A DNA stretch of 64,000 bases. Origin: Gemmatimonadales bacterium. Lineage in GTDB: Bacteria; Gemmatimonadota; Gemmatimonadetes; Gemmatimonadales; GWC2-71-9. Below the pieces are notes generated by a model that worked only from the letters and a program-made list of their open reading frames with translations, made no database searches and was not told the origin of the DNA. The position numbers and the translations under genes were made by a program. This document shows, piece by piece, positions 3,424-41,472 of the stretch. The stretch covers positions 1,878-65,877 of the forward strand of contig JBGSKF010000241.1 in the NCBI GenBank assembly GCA_041741375.1, read 5' to 3'. The first letter of the stretch is position 1; each line of letters opens with the position of its first letter.

Positions 3424-4556
3424 CTCCACCGGACGACTCTCCCCCCCCTCCACCGCCGGGACTCGACGCCCTCCGGGCCCGGATCGCGGCGGTGGACCGG
3501 GAGCTCATGGCTCTGGTGACCGAACGTCTGGCACTGGCCGAGCAGATCGGTGCCACCAAGCGTGTGCGGGGTCTCCCAATCCGGAACTATGGCACCGAAA
3601 CGGAGGTCCTGGCGCGGTATCGCGAAGCGGCGGCCGCCGCGGGGCTCGAGCCCGAATTCGGTGAGGGGCTCGCCGGCATGCTGATCGCCGAAGCGGTGCG
3701 GCGCCAGGAGGAGGGTCTGGGGCCGACGGGCAACGCGGCCGCCGCACTGGAGGTGCTGATCCTGGGCGGGGCCGGCAAGATGGGCCTCTGGTTCACCAAT
3801 TTTTTCCGGGGGCAGGGTCATCGGGTTCTCCGGCTCGACCCGGCACTGCCGGCGGGGAGTCCCGACGCGGCGTCCGGCATCGAGGCGGTGGACACGGCGG
3901 ACGTCATCCTCCTCGCCATGCCCCTCTCGCTGGGTCCGGAACTGCTGGAGACGGTACTCGCCCGGAGCCCTCACGGCCTCGTGGTCGACATCTCGAGCCT
4001 CAAGAGCCACCTGATCGGCGTGCTCCGAGAGGGGGCTGCGCGCGGGTCCCGGGTGGCGAGCCTTCACCCTCTCTTCGGTCCCGGAGTGCGCACCCTCGCG
4101 GGCCGAATCATGGCAGTGTGTGACTGCGGAAACCCTGACGCAGCGGACCAGGCGGCCGGCCTCTTCGCGGACACCGCGGTGACCCTCGTCCGGCATCCGA
4201 TCGAGGAGCATGACCAGTTCATGCAGTATGTACTCGGCCTGAGCCACGCCGTGTCCCTCCTGTTTGCCACGACGCTGGCCCACAGCGGGCGATCCTATCA
4301 GGACCTTGCCGCCCTGGCGAGCACCACGTTCCTGAAACAGGTGAGGACCGCCGGGGAGGTGGTGCGGGAGAACCCCGGCATGTACCACGAGATTCAGCAC
4401 CTGAACCGGCACACACCGGCGCTGTTCCGTCTGCTGGCCGAGCGATTGGACACGCTCCAGGCCGCGGCGACCGCCGACGATCCGGCGCCCTTCGTGGCGT
4501 TGATGGAGGAGGCTCGGCGGTATTTCCCGGAGACGGTGGAGACGGCGTTACCGTAG
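3420..4556 (+). CDS. tyrA: Bifunctional chorismate mutase / prephenate dehydrogenase
   Basis: N-terminal AroQ chorismate mutase helix pattern (LDALRARIAAVDRELMALVTERLALAEQIGATK). This is followed by a Rossmann GxGxxG (ILGGAGKMG) and prephenate dehydrogenase motifs (VVDISSLK, SLHPLFGP). Confidence 0.8.
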   Translation: MTPPDDSPPPPPPGLDALRARIAAVDRELMALVTERLALAEQIGATKRVRGLPIRNYGTETEVLARYREAAAAAGLEPEFGEGLAGMLIAEAVRRQEEGLGPTGNAAAALEVLILGGAGKMGLWFTNFFRGQGHRVLRLDPALPAGSPDAASGIEAVDTADVILLAMPLSLGPELLETVLARSPHGLVVDISSLKSHLIGVLREGAARGSRVASLHPLFGPGVRTLAGRIMAVCDCGNPDAADQAAGLFADTAVTLVRHPIEEHDQFMQYVLGLSHAVSLLFATTLAHSGRSYQDLAALASTTFLKQVRTAGEVVRENPGMYHEIQHLNRHTPALFRLLAERLDTLQAAATADDPAPFVALMEEARRYFPETVETALP

Positions 4557-4569
4557 GGGAGAACAGACA

Positions 4570-4618
4570 GGACCTAGGACATAGGACATAGGACATAGGA
4601 CATAGGGCAGAGGCCCGT
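4570..4618. repeat. Heptamer tandem array, GGACATA type (left arm of cassette A)
   Basis: Read directly: GGACCTA GGACATA GGACATA GGACATA GGACATA GGGCAGA GGCCCGT. It starts 14 nt after the tyrA stop and ends 2 nt before the stop of the 4HB gene. Confidence 0.9.
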
Positions 4619-4620
4619 CC

Positions 4621-5037
4621 TTAGCTCCTGCGGGATCTCCGGCGGAGTGCTCCCAGCATCTTCCCCACCTCATCCATCAGGCCCCGGACGTGGACGGTGT
4701 CCTTGTTGGCGAGAAATCCCACCTGCTCGCACAGCTCCAGGAGTGTTTCCACCTCTGCCAAAGAGCCGTGGGCAATGGCCAGAAACTGAGCCCGCTCGCG
4801 GACGGATTCGCGGACCCACCCTTCCGCAATGTTCGCGGGAACGGACGCCGCGGCACGGGTGATTTGCGACCGGAGACCATAGACCTCCTCCGTCGGGAGA
4901 CGTGGGGCCATGCGATAGATGTCCGTCGCCACGTCCATGGCTTTGCGCCAGACGGTCAACTTGCGGTAGTACAGGCCCACGAAGGCATCCTCTGTCTGGG
5001 GTGCATCCCAGACTACACATCGCCTTGAATTCTGCAT
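4621..5037 (-). CDS. Four-helix-bundle protein (23S rRNA intervening-sequence protein family, PF05635/TIGR02436-like)
   Basis: ORF 4621..5082. Start moved to ATG 5037 (MQNSRR...). Family hallmarks: YRKLTVWRKAMDVATDIYR, GLRSQITRAAASVPANIAEG, AHGSLAEVETLLELC. Confidence 0.8.
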   Translation of the reverse strand: MQNSRRCVVWDAPQTEDAFVGLYYRKLTVWRKAMDVATDIYRMAPRLPTEEVYGLRSQITRAAASVPANIAEGWVRESVRERAQFLAIAHGSLAEVETLLELCEQVGFLANKDTVHVRGLMDEVGKMLGALRRRSRRS

Positions 5038-5101
5038 GATCCATCCATGACATCCTGTCACGGCAGGTCGTGGATTTCCCACCAGATCGCGGATCCCGCG
5101 C

Positions 5102-5172
5102 GTCCCTATGTCCTCTGTCCTCTGTTGTCCTATGTCCTCCCTCTTGTCCTACGTCCTCTGTCCTATCCTGTC
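5102..5172. repeat. Degenerate heptamer array, TGTCCTN/TATGTCC type (right arm of cassette A, inverted relative to 4570-4618)
   Basis: GTCC cores at 5102, 5110, 5117, 5127, 5134, 5147, 5153 and 5160, mostly spaced 6-8 nt apart. The units are the reverse complement of GGACATA/GGACAGA. Confidence 0.85.
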
Positions 5173-5180
5173 ACCCCCCC

Positions 5181-5630
5181 TCAGGGATCCTGCCTGCTGA
5201 GCGTCACCTCGGCGAGAATCCCGCCGCCGGCGTCGCCCGATGAGGTGAGCGTCTGTCCGGCGATGGTCCAGACGAAGTCGCGGATGAAGGTGTCGGCCGA
5301 TTGCGTGAACCGCAGGGTGGACCCCGTGACCGTGAACGTGCCGACCAGGTTCGTGGTGAAGGCGTCCCCGAACTCCGGGGTGTCGGGAATGATCATTTGT
5401 CCGGTGACCCCTCCGGTGGCTGTGAGGGTGACCTCGATACTGCCCCCTCGGGCCAGCATGTTCACGACCGGGTTGGTCCCCTCGCGAAGGGTGAACGTCG
5501 TGGTGCTGTAGTCACCCGCGACGCCGGCCGTCGGACCCATCGGGTCGTCGTCGTCGTCGCTGCACCCGGCGAGAAGGAGGACGAACGGAAACAGCAGGCT
5601 GGTGCGCAACATCCGGGTGTGGGGCTTCAT
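5181..5630 (-). CDS. Hypothetical lipoprotein
   Basis: ORF 5181..5696. Start at ATG 5630 (MKPHTRMLRTSLLFPFVLLLAGCSDDDDD, a lipobox LAGC). The rest is beta-rich, and no family was recognised. Confidence 0.6.
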   Translation of the reverse strand: MKPHTRMLRTSLLFPFVLLLAGCSDDDDDPMGPTAGVAGDYSTTTFTLREGTNPVVNMLARGGSIEVTLTATGGVTGQMIIPDTPEFGDAFTTNLVGTFTVTGSTLRFTQSADTFIRDFVWTIAGQTLTSSGDAGGGILAEVTLSRQDP

Positions 5631-5753
5631 GAGGCACCTCTGTCCATCAGGGAAAGTCGCGATTCCGGCCGCTGGATGGCGACCGGGTGTGGCCATCGTG
5701 CTGTCGGGAACTCGTGGTGACGTCCGACGGAATCACCGGGAACGCAGCGGTGA

Positions 5754-10904: not shown

Positions 10905-10914
10905 CGCGCACCCC

Positions 10915-11046
10915 GTAGGGGCGAATTAAATTCGCCCATGGCATGATAGCCGAGCGCTCGTAGGGGCGAATAACATTCGCCCGTGGCCTGGTAGCAAGCG
11001 CCCGTGGGGCGAATCACATTCGCCCATCGCATGACGACCGGACACC
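10915..11046. repeat. Three tandem ~44-bp repeats, each with an 8-bp-stem hairpin (REP-like)
   Basis: Units start at 10915, 10960 and 11004. Consensus: GTAGGGGCGAAT-NNN-ATTCGCCCRTGGCMTGRTAGC... Hairpins GGGCGAAT/ATTCGCCC lie at 10919-10937, 10964-10982 and 11007-11025. Confidence 0.85.
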
Positions 11047-11082: not shown

Positions 11083-11165
11083 TGCCCGAGGCGAGAGTCG
11101 AACTCGCACGGGGTCGCCCCCGGTGGATTTTGAGTCCACTGCGTCTGCCATTCCGCCACTCGGGC
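11083..11165 (-). tRNA. tRNA-Leu (anticodon CAA), class II with a long variable arm; no encoded CCA
   Basis: Reverse complement: GCCCGAG TG GCGGAATGGCAGACGC A GTGGA CTCAAAA TCCAC CGGGGGCGACCCCGT GCGAG TTCGACT CTCGC CTCGGGC A. It folds by hand into a cloverleaf. Confidence 0.9.
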
Positions 11166-15720: not shown

Positions 15721-15790
15721 CCCTAGGTCCTATGTCCTGCTGTCCTAAGTCCTGCGTTCTCCACCGCCCCTGCCTTCCGATCCACCCGCC
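15721..15790. repeat. Solo heptamer array (GTCCT type) plus a degenerate cassette core
   Basis: CCCTAGGTCC TATGTCC TGCTGTCC TAAGTCC TGCGTTC, then CCACCGCCCCTGCCTTCCGATCC. This shares CGCCCCTGCC and CCGAT with the cores at 33016-33047 and 40794-40822. Confidence 0.6.
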
Positions 15791-32523: not shown

Positions 32524-32985
32524 ATGGCCCTGAACATCGCCCTCATCGAGCCGCAGATCCCGCCGAATACCGGAAACATCGCGCGCCTGTGCGCTGCCAC
32601 CGGAACCGGCCTCCACCTGATCGGTCCGCTCGGCTTTTCGCTCGACTCCGCGGACGTTCTGCGGGCCGGGCTCGACTACTGGGATGCGGTCGACCTCTGG
32701 CCCCATGCACACTGGCGCGAGTTCCGCGAGGCGATCTCCCGGGAGCGCTGCCTGTACTTTTCCGCGCGGGCCACCGTCCCCTTCTGGAACGCTCGCTTCA
32801 CACCGACCAGCTGCCTCGTCTTCGGGAACGAGACCGATGGGATGCCGGAGCGGATCCTGGAAAAGCATCCGGAACGGTGCTTCCGGATTCCCATGTCCGG
32901 TCCGGTTCGAAGCCTCAACCTGGCCACGGCGGCGGGGATCGTGCTGTACGAAGCGCTCCGGCAAACGGGAGGGAGTGGGGGGTAG
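32524..32985 (+). CDS. trmL: tRNA (cytidine/uridine-2'-O)-methyltransferase (SpoU/TrmL)
   Basis: Motifs: IALIEPQIPPNTGNIARLCAATG, LVFGNETDGMP, SLNLATAAGIVLYEA. The last six codons lie inside a heptamer array. Confidence 0.85.
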   Translation: MALNIALIEPQIPPNTGNIARLCAATGTGLHLIGPLGFSLDSADVLRAGLDYWDAVDLWPHAHWREFREAISRERCLYFSARATVPFWNARFTPTSCLVFGNETDGMPERILEKHPERCFRIPMSGPVRSLNLATAAGIVLYEALRQTGGSGG

Positions 32986-33008
32986 GGAGTCGGGAGTAAG
33001 GGACGACG
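32967..33008. repeat. Degenerate purine-rich heptamer array (left arm of cassette B)
   Basis: GGGAGGG AGTGGGG GGTAGGG AGTCGGG AGTAAGG GACGACG. It is partially complementary to GTCCTAC units (with G-U pairs). It overlaps the trmL 3' end. Confidence 0.6.
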
Positions 33009-33068
33009 CGTGCGTCGCCCCTGCCCCGGATGGAAACGACTGCCGATTGGCGGTCGAGGCGAATCCAT

Positions 33069-33173
33069 GTCCTACGTCCTACGTCCTACGTCCTACGTCC
33101 TACGTCCTACGTCCTACGTCCTACGTCCTACGTCCTACGTCCTACGTCCTACGTCCGATGTCCTATGTCCCGG
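33069..33173. repeat. Heptamer tandem array (GTCCTAC)x12 perfect plus 3 degenerate units (right arm of cassette B)
   Basis: Counted directly. Perfect 7-nt periodicity runs from 33069 to 33152, then GTCCGAT, GTCCTAT, GTCCCGG. Confidence 0.95.
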
Positions 33174-40761: not shown

Positions 40762-40893
40762 GGAAGTTGGAAATCTGAAGTTTGAAGGAGGCCTGCCCCT
40801 CCCCGGATTGAACCGTCCCGATCTCGCTCCCGCGACATCGGCCCGAACTTACGACAGACTTCACACTTCGAATTTCACACTTCGAACTTCGTA
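40762..40893. repeat. ORF-less inverted heptamer-array cassette C (GAAGTTN arm, core, ACTTCNN arm)
   Basis: Left arm: GGAAGTT GGAAATC TGAAGTT TGAAGGA (40762-40789). Core: GCCTGCCCCTCCCCGGATTGAACCGTCCCGAT... Right arm: ACTTCAC ACTTCGA ATTTCAC ACTTCGA ACTTCGT (40858-40892). It fills the whole sdhB/dcd convergent gap. Confidence 0.85.
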
Positions 40894-41472
40894 CTACATC
40901 CGGGGAAGCGTCACTCCCCGTTGGGCCTGGTACTTGCCGGCCTTGTCCCGGTAGCTCACTTGACACTCATCATCGGCATCGGCCTCGAAGAAGAGGACCT
41001 GACAGATCCCCTCGTTGGCGTAGACCCGGGCGGGGAGGGGAGTGGTGTTGCTGATCTCCAGGGTGACGTGCCCCTCCCACTCGGGCTCGAACGGGGTGAC
41101 GTTGGTGATGATCCCGCAGCGCGCATAGGTCGACTTTCCGACGCAGATGGTCAGGACGTTCCGCGGAATCCGGAAGTACTCGACCGACCGTGCCAGGGCA
41201 AATGAGTTCGGGGGAACGAGGCAGATCTCCCCTTCGTACTCGACGAAGCTCCGGGCATCGAAGTTCTTCGGATCCACAATCGCCGAGAGCGCATTGGTGA
41301 AGATGCGGAACTCGGGGGCGACCCGCATGTCGTACCCATACGACGACACGCCGTAGGAGATCACGCGATCTCCGTCCGCCGCGGGCTTCCGAATCTGGCC
41401 GTCGACGAAGGGTTCGATCATGCCATGCTCGCGTGCCATGCGGCGGATCCAACGGTCGGACTTGATGGACAT
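40894..41472 (-). CDS. dcd: dCTP deaminase
   Basis: C-terminal 192 codons of ORF 40894..41994, from ATG 41472. [41 protein letters not shown]. Confidence 0.9.

Follow-up and report, generated by a model that had tools for sequence, protein, structure and literature searches.

Among the places in which genes of the four-helix-bundle family PF05635 occur are the intervening sequences (IVSs) of rRNA genes. The Coxiella IVS contains an S23p open reading frame (ORF) and a 28-bp terminal stem that is cut by RNase III, and both the function and the origin of the IVS protein have been called unclear (PMC4990558). PF05635 ORFs are likewise present in insertions of the 16S and 23S rRNA genes of the Candidate Phyla Radiation (CPR) (bioRxiv 10.1101/2024.02.27.582315). 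Intergenic arrays of tandem 7-nt units, GGGAATC in Xanthomonas and GGGGAYT in Nostoc, vary rapidly in length between close relatives, and those of Xanthomonas are often arranged as inverted pairs that converge, the G-rich arm leading on each strand (PMC4692102). One array (GGGAATC x4) overlaps the XCC0516 start codon as annotated (Rehm et al. 2015 supplement, PMC4692102); the terms ‘four helix’, ‘S23’ and ‘intervening’ are absent from the text of Rehm et al. 2015, and PF05635 genes are unmentioned there (PMC4692102). A full-text literature search found no link between PF05635 genes and heptamer arrays and no in-frame insertion, most subscription journals lying outside its coverage, so that an earlier description is possible. 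Here, a locus with both a PF05635 gene and inverted heptamer arrays is described in a 64,000-nt stretch (the window) of a Gemmatimonadales bacterium genome (assembly GCA_041741375.1, contig JBGSKF010000241.1, positions 1,878 to 65,877). On balance, positions 4569–5177 of the window are best read as the intergenic copy of a compact insertion cassette, made up of a purine-rich arm, a leader with a ribosome-binding site, the PF05635 gene and a complementary pyrimidine-rich arm.

The gene lies on the minus strand between two period-7 arrays. On the plus strand, the left array (4569–4606) is called by Tandem Repeats Finder (TRF) on the window as AGGACAT x5.4 with 96% matches and continues as two degenerate units to ~4618; the right array (5105–5164, TRF) is a degenerate series of TGTCCTC, TATGTCC and TACGTCC units with indels, and its complementarity to the left arm reaches 5177. 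Read in the direction of the gene, the 5’ arm (5102–5177, minus strand) consists of ~9–10 degenerate, purine-rich GGACAKA/GGACGTA heptamers with indels, and the 3’ arm (4569–4618, minus strand) is pyrimidine-rich, contains about five TATGTCC units plus two degenerate ones, and begins 2 nt past the stop codon. A first-pass annotation of this DNA had counted about nine degenerate units in the right arm; the array itself stands, but its indels leave no clean set of nine. A repeat finder reports at least 12 inverted pairs between the two arms, the best covering 33 nt at 76% and 22 nt at 91%, with partners of the right arm that span 4556–4613. RNAduplex on 160-nt flanks was uninformative, GC-rich random sequence being similar in energy, and local complementarity alignment and arms-only duplexes were used instead. 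The arms-only duplex reaches -74.6 kcal/mol on the plus strand (z -6.6) and -87.3 kcal/mol on the mRNA-sense minus strand (z -8.3), none of 300 shuffles being as low in either case, and arm-arm pairing is also present in the full-length minimum-free-energy fold of both strands. The proposal that inverted heptamer arrays bracket the ORF, and that they pair better than shuffled controls, is thereby confirmed. Like an IVS, the cassette has a long ORF-enclosing stem formed by terminal inverted repeats. Like heptanucleotide simple sequence repeats (SSRs) or short tandemly repeated repetitive (STRR) sequences, it has head-to-tail 7-nt units in noncoding DNA whose copy number varies between relatives, and like a Xanthomonas-type convergent pair it places the purine-rich arm before the pyrimidine-rich one (R..Y).

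The minus-strand ORF is the sole family match between the arms. It scores 117.5 bits against PF05635 (E=3.8e-34, profile positions 1–105 of 106) and 115.3 bits against TIGR02436 (E=1.4e-33), well clear of the curated cutoffs of 33.8 and 24 bits, and its closest solved structure is 2GSC (XCC0516; E=7.5e-22, residues 6–118), in agreement with the family assignment made in the first-pass annotation. A pentameric structure has reportedly been published for this homolog, and XCC0516 and Avd, the accessory protein of diversity-generating retroelements (DGRs), are both taken here to be pentamers. R61, S65, N69 and E72 do not vary across an alignment of 25 sequences and have the spacing R-x3-S-x3-N-x2-E, a motif quoted for the four-helix-bundle family (PMC3936711). 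PF05635 and PF22296 are the sole domains identified in the protein, in which no nuclease, recombinase, polymerase or transposase domain is recognisable, and PADLOC returned no match. The ORF had been given a length of 139 aa, which needs correction: from the ATG at 5037 it codes for 138 aa, and a 119-aa product (4621–4980, minus strand, GTG 4980 to stop TAA 4621–4623) is more probable. The ortholog at locus L004 has an ATG at the position of GTG 4980 and is missing the upstream ATG, a 99%-identical 119-aa protein on an NCBI-sourced contig (P0002) has the same start, and a Shine-Dalgarno-like AGAGGA (4988–4993) sits 7 nt ahead of the GTG; the conserved start is thus probably GTG 4980. Between the 5’ arm and this codon lies a leader of 121 nt (4981–5101, minus strand) that contains a hairpin at 4994–5013 and is conserved in the orthologs at L004 and L005. 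The hairpin stem GUCUGGG..CCCAGAC reads UUUGGG..CCCAAA in L004, which amounts to one compensatory pair. Most other family members are without such a leader, and their arm directly adjoins the start codon.

The association of the gene with heptamer arrays is not confined to the window. Scanning a single genome of each species yielded 80 loci whose homologs have 55–68% identity and come from Proteobacteria, Chloroflexota, Acidobacteriota, Planctomycetota, Cyanobacteria, Gemmatimonadota and other phyla. Arrays were called by TRF (period 7, at least 2.9 copies, within 250 nt of the gene), a strict period-7 run detector having overlooked degenerate arrays. Among the 71 loci with complete flanks, an array is present upstream in 49, downstream in 45 and on both sides in 35; the far flanks of the same loci have a background of 0.13 arrays/kb, over which arrays are enriched more than 20-fold at PF05635 genes. 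Local alignment of the upstream flank to the reverse complement of the downstream flank yields complementarity with z>4 relative to shuffles in 54 of 70 loci. In 26 loci, the consensus units of the two arms are reverse complements with at most two mismatches. The co-occurrence of arrays with four-helix-bundle genes that the first-pass annotation proposed is therefore found family-wide. The typical arm has 4–5 units (median 4.4–4.6, TRF). The unit is lineage-specific (GAGGAGT, GAAATAG, AGGACNT, GAGAAAC, AGAGAGG and others) and both arms of one cassette match, a pattern indicating that the two arms change sequence together between lineages. In a census of gene-enclosing complementary pairs, the purine-rich arm comes first in 30, the reverse order occurs in none and three are mixed; tight ORF-less pairs obey the same polarity, which agrees with the convergent pairs reported for Xanthomonas. 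Purine-first order is identical when read from either strand, and therefore makes no statement on gene orientation.

More distant homologs show the same architecture. Eight of them (35–48% identity; cyanobacterial and Gemmatirosa plasmids) were inspected, of which seven have arrays on both sides and six have clearly complementary R..Y arms. Their units include GGTGACA/TGTCACC, GGGTGTA/TACACCC, GGGAGTA/TACTCCC, GGAGATA/TATCTCC and, in Gemmatirosa, an octamer, and their contexts are cas6-cas4, cmr2-cmr3, between the genes of ribonucleotide reductase subunits, and parA-parB. On cyanobacterial plasmids, members with their own arrays occupy the cas6-cas4 (type I-D) and cmr2-cmr3 intervals (L132, L138, L139). 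The Pseudanabaena copy (L138) is exceptional in having same-orientation AAAAGCT/AAAAGCC arrays. The octamer version on the Gemmatirosa kalamazoonensis plasmid (L134, 1000–1600) reads GGGCAGGA / CTCCTGCC and has a complete hairpin upstream. In other relatives (L043, L048, L052, L055, L059, L063 (Caldilineaceae) and L058), a complete hairpin of purine arm, loop and pyrimidine arm flanks the gene on both sides. The two hairpins of the Caldilineaceae are direct repeats of each other, and the gene appears there, from a reading of the sequence only, between a possible ATP-binding cassette (ABC) substrate-binding protein gene and a permease gene. Further loci have an additional purine arm just past the stop codon, which gives alternative pairings.

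Comparison of filled and empty sites provides evidence that gene and arms are inserted together. Relative to the four-helix-bundle ORF, 37 of 73 loci have a +2 frame that contains no stop across the gene and continues for at least 300 nt on both sides, an openness that is never seen in the +1 frame or on the antisense strand. Under a slightly different cut, the 36 embedded loci all have zero +2-frame stops, versus a mean of 2.9 in 29 non-embedded loci, and the +1 frame has ~5 stops in both sets alike. The hosts of the embedded copies are a DUF1156 methylase and an SNF2-like helicase of BREX-related systems (named after PMC12839542). DUF1156 genes without an insert, from one Burkholderia and one Thermus plasmid (L130/L131), have a 12-codon linker at the insertion point. 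The interval from IEIPP to DVR measures 117 nt in empty DUF1156 genes versus 501–651 nt in ~30 filled ones, and the extra sequence is exactly the purine-rich arm, ribosome-binding site, gene and pyrimidine-rich arm. The whole cassette lies in-frame in the methylase gene in L014 (1735–5229), L046 (1879–5208) and ~30 others, and host read-through of the four-helix-bundle gene in the +2 frame adds ~130–180 residues rich in G, D, E and R. At a second DUF1156 site, between EPVIE and GYRF, four lineages carry in-frame ORF-less heptamer hairpins of 60–171 nt (L018 3193–3327; L053 3223–3453; L084 3154–3273; L056 3265–3405), and this site is empty in nine loci (eight relatives plus the Burkholderia reference). 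In the helicase host, the cassette follows a YAPYLDYRPL motif in one lineage (L008) and precedes it in five (L022, L026, L034, L054 and L041, the last cut by a contig end); the two sites are ~15–25 codons apart, at ~2400–2900 in each locus, and since the cassette lies on opposite sides of the motif, each helicase lineage serves as the empty site of the other.

The presence/absence polymorphism of a mobile element is thus found among the relatives, not at the window locus. A neighbour-joining tree of the proteins groups the window copy with intergenic, methylase-embedded and helicase-embedded copies, all of which have AGGACNT-type arms. Because one arm type extends across these contexts, the arms travel with the gene; by these comparisons, they are part of the inserted unit and not a property of the target site, and gene and arms have moved together between intergenic positions, operons and in-frame positions in large ORFs. 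The suggestion that the module could be mobile is accordingly strengthened, and its description as a free-standing IVS-like, possibly mobile element largely holds, with respect to protein family, enclosing stem, location outside rRNA and empty sites in relatives.

The window copy is flanked on one side by FloA, a hypothetical gene and a chorismate mutase-prephenate dehydrogenase (CM-PDH, tyrA) gene that is convergent with the cassette, and on the other by unassigned ORFs on the strand of the cassette gene, including one at 5181–5696 that has no Pfam match and that the first-pass annotation had named a lipoprotein gene. The neighbours in the window include neither rRNA nor a reverse transcriptase, and a search with Rfam at gathering thresholds finds only a tRNA in the 64 kb; the position outside rRNA and beside a tyrA-type gene is as first described. 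The copy is therefore not one inserted in a 23S rRNA helix (9, 25 or 45), the location of an IVS, and rRNA flanks none of 20 related intergenic loci (0/20), on which Rfam at the same thresholds yields no match at all. Two relatives share the gene and the GGACATA/TATGTCC arms, with 88–89% protein identity: L004 (GCA_017973855.1) and L005 (a JGI metagenome). The 5’ arm measures 58 nt in L004, ~75 nt in the window and 125 nt in L005. The tyrA side is syntenic in both relatives and the other side is rearranged; in L004, a tRNA-Leu gene and an ORF-less GGGTGTT hairpin take the place of window ORF 5181–5696. The dN/dS against the orthologs is 0.12–0.29, so the window copy is inherited and its protein constrained, and by this comparison it is an old, vertically inherited member of its lineage under purifying selection. 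In a soil-metagenome relative (L091, ~2390–2460), an ORF-less heptamer hairpin, GGTGCGA.../...TCGCACC, lies right behind the tyrA stop, which is the position of the cassette in the window. Three Logan short-read contigs with an identical gene (L001–L003) all terminate ~44 nt beyond the gene, within the array. The arrays break assemblies and are probably under-represented in metagenome data.

Several other repeats are present in the window. A solitary short array of GTCCTAT/GTCCTAA units (15722–15755, TRF and sequence) belongs to the same heptamer family as the cassette. So does an ORF-less (GTCCTAC) x14.6 array at 33069–33170 (TRF), one mismatch from TATGTCC, which is preceded by a non-complementary AGGGAGT x4.7 array (32970–33003) and a 65-nt core with small hairpins. 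The combined segment (32970–33170) keeps the purine-first polarity; its arms are not complementary, and it folds no better than shuffles (z -0.5 and +0.5), so this ORF-less copy of the first-pass annotation is no hairpin of complementary arms. At 40763–40895, an ORF-less element with a different heptamer, GAAGTTT ... ACTTCGA (TRF), has its purine-rich arm first, counts as an R..Y pair in the census and is a real hairpin by fold z (-3.05 on the plus strand, -2.3 on the minus strand); it lies between two gene ends that appear convergent in the flanking sequence. The cores of the 33-kb and 40-kb elements resemble each other (p ~0.006, local alignment versus shuffles). The first-pass annotation had also linked the cassette leader to these ORF-less copies through a shared core motif, a resemblance that does not rise above chance by the same method (p ~0.24 and 0.5). 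A 45-nt tandem repeat x2.8 at 10912–11034, each unit with a hairpin GGGGCGAAT...ATTCGCCC, directly adjoins tRNA-Leu(CAA) at 11083–11165 (minus strand). In L004, the ORF-less GGGTGTT/AAYACCC hairpin beside tRNA-Leu (4525–4670) folds to -88.9 versus -58.8 kcal/mol depending on the strand because of G:U pairs, an RNA-like asymmetry that is not seen in the cassette arms overall.

The reading favoured here, with confidence slightly above even, is that of a mobile cassette whose paired arms form a stem in the RNA that RNase III processes. Once transcribed, the arms would pair into a stem of ~45–50 bp around the gene, as the terminal repeats of 23S IVSs do, and a stem of this length would be a substrate of the RNase III type. 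Its cutting would free a discrete four-helix-bundle mRNA with protected ends, parted from the transcript of the upstream ORF (5181–5696). The cassette may spread when its arms recombine with ORF-less hairpins that have the same heptamer at other places in the genome, and the same-family arrays in the window (15722–15755, 33069–33170) could be landing sites. A number of results weigh against this interpretation. The arms contain no RNA-specific signal: their G:U-type mismatches are strand-symmetric (130 versus 127), and the pairing could therefore be DNA-level or maintained by gene conversion. In embedded copies, the open host frame (0 stops, 36/36) means that cleavage is not obligatory there, since unligated excision destroys the host mRNA; such a frame would only make sense if the host mRNA is translated through the insert. 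At the window locus, the Rfam search assigns no family to the cassette, and neither a sigma-70-like promoter nor an intrinsic terminator (a short GC-rich hairpin with a U-tract) is found in a scan of 4400–5400. An empty site for this locus was not recovered, the tyrA relatives in metagenomes being only 53–62% identical and non-syntenic. No target-site duplication is evident at the junctions, where the arms appear to have overwritten adjacent codons, no recent insertion is seen, and no recombinase is encoded.

The strand symmetry of the pairing favours instead a DNA-level element, which ranks second and is a possible, though doubtful, explanation. The pentameric protein would bind the tandem heptamers as ssDNA or dsDNA, with about one unit per subunit, and the arrays would be terminal repeats or recognition sites; alone or with a host polymerase or recombinase, the protein would maintain or disperse gene-carrying and ORF-less hairpins, as REP-associated tyrosine transposases (RAYTs) do with repetitive extragenic palindromic (REP) sequences and REPINs. 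It is consistent with this that ORF-less hairpins of the same heptamer family occur near cassettes and elsewhere, among them the in-frame hairpins at the second DUF1156 site in four lineages. Arms of typically 4–5 units stand beside a presumably pentameric protein, although this mode is possibly an artefact of the detection threshold, and arm type tracks protein phylogeny, although co-inheritance alone accounts for that match. The 5’-purine/3’-pyrimidine polarity would be expected from templated extension of two 3’ ends facing a break. Xanthomonas has ~186 GGGAATC arrays, 70–75 of them in convergent pairs, and one of the arrays is that at the XCC0516 start codon (PMC4692102). However, no domain of a nuclease, recombinase or polymerase can be recognised in the protein, and in many genomes the gene is multi-copy, unlike the single-copy RAYTs. 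Cis-regulation ranks third and is unlikely. Under it, the purine-rich arm would supply Shine-Dalgarno-like units at the start codon and the pyrimidine-rich arm would sequester them; expression would then hinge on whether the host RNA around the cassette is translated or transcribed, or on whether the protein itself binds. ORF-less versions would be bidirectional terminators without a U-tract or REP-like 3’-end stabilisers. Most relatives do have a 5’ arm that ends 0–40 nt from the start codon with final units of GGAGG or AGGAG, and a stop codon in or beside the first 3’-arm unit, and some ORF-less hairpins apparently lie at the 3’ ends of convergent-looking genes (window 40763–40895; L091 after tyrA). 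RNA:DNA hybrids with pyrimidine RNA are weak, and the R..Y polarity would provide such a hybrid during closure of the hairpin. Against this, the window copy has a 121-nt leader with a separate Shine-Dalgarno-like site that lies outside the arm, units such as GGGTGTT, GAAGTTT and AAAAGCT do not resemble a Shine-Dalgarno sequence, a 360-nt loop is far from terminator geometry, and the terminator scan is empty.

The two remaining explanations are much less probable. That polymerase slippage in this genome produced heptamer microsatellites, two of which by chance enclose an ordinary resident gene, is very unlikely, even if heptamers are the commonest SSR class among 5–11 nt in many bacteria (cited in PMC4679880) and the window holds several further arrays. 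It is opposed by the more than 20-fold enrichment at PF05635 genes, by arms that are complementary and covary, by the recurrence of the pattern in distant phyla with different units, by empty sites without arms and by the 30:0 polarity. Less credible still is a DGR remnant, in which the gene would be an Avd accessory protein whose reverse transcriptase and template/variable repeats (TR/VR) were lost. The protein does match bAvd PF22296 (28.5 bits) and DivGenRetAVD NF033474 (33.2 bits), but neither score reaches its curated cutoff (40 and 80, respectively), which does not place it in the DGR/Avd group; no reverse transcriptase is found among its neighbours (FloA, hypothetical, CM-PDH and unassigned ORFs), and the arrays are tandem heptamers, not a TR/VR pair.

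The mobile-cassette reading has implications beyond this locus. The comparative data show gene and arrays to be one unit that inserts at new sites, among them in-frame positions in the methylase and helicase genes of BREX-related systems and intervals between cas genes. The family has been reported as CRISPR-associated (PMC3936711; PMC10910872), and this published association may reflect insertion rather than function. For annotation, the consequence is that long host ORFs are split or mis-called, and the embedded cassettes add a further, new case of selfish DNA with dual coding. The locus brings together two long-standing puzzles, the protein of the 23S IVS and the abundant heptanucleotide arrays of Calothrix, Xanthomonas and Nostoc. 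It is tentatively proposed, as a possibility and a less probable claim than the cassette itself, that PF05635 genes and heptamer-repeat hairpins (cyanobacterial STRR, Xanthomonas GGGAATC) constitute one unrecognised class of mobile element. Its pentameric protein would recognise heptamers and promote their propagation or processing, and the element would survive in rRNA helices, operons and ORFs by folding of its ends and a second open frame. If true, this would assign a role to the IVS protein as well as to the heptamer arrays, both of them without an established function (PMC4990558, PMC4692102).

The cassette has several close counterparts among described systems. It shares the four-helix-bundle fold family with Avd, to which it has weak profile matches; the window gene differs in scoring under the family cutoffs and in having no reverse transcriptase or template/variable repeats nearby. 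With REP/REPIN and RAYT systems it has in common a small gene flanked by a hairpin repeat that is also dispersed gene-free in intergenic DNA, and in some cassette relatives the gene stands between two complete hairpins; here, however, the protein is a four-helix bundle and not an HUH/Y1 transposase, the tandem heptamers are lineage-specific, and the gene is often multi-copy. Rickettsia palindromic elements and other coding MITEs (miniature transposable elements with inverted repeats) can be compared in that cassette relatives and ORF-less hairpins lie in-frame in surface linkers of large proteins and are read through by the host. The cassettes differ from them in carrying a complete second gene in another frame (dual coding, with the host always in +2) and tandem-array arms, and in having no evident transposase or target-site duplication, and the window copy itself is intergenic.

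The STRR, Xanthomonas and Nostoc arrays are alike in their tandem 7-nt units and convergent pairs, and one of them stands at XCC0516, the closest solved homolog of the window protein; there they were treated as stand-alone SSRs or G-quadruplex motifs, whereas here they bound a gene cassette at either end. The 23S rRNA IVSs (Leptospira, Coxiella burnetii; 16S/23S in CPR) share a PF05635 protein, stem-forming terminal inverted repeats, a length of a few hundred nt and a sporadic distribution suggesting horizontal spread (PMC4990558; bioRxiv 10.1101/2024.02.27.582315). The window copy differs in lying outside rRNA and in having tandem heptamer arms of variable length in place of the single 28-bp repeat of Coxiella, and cassette relatives differ in lying in-frame in protein genes, where unligated excision would be lethal to the host mRNA. 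An IVS protein enclosed by a stem was thus already known; the location outside rRNA and the tandem-heptamer arms are what the window feature adds.

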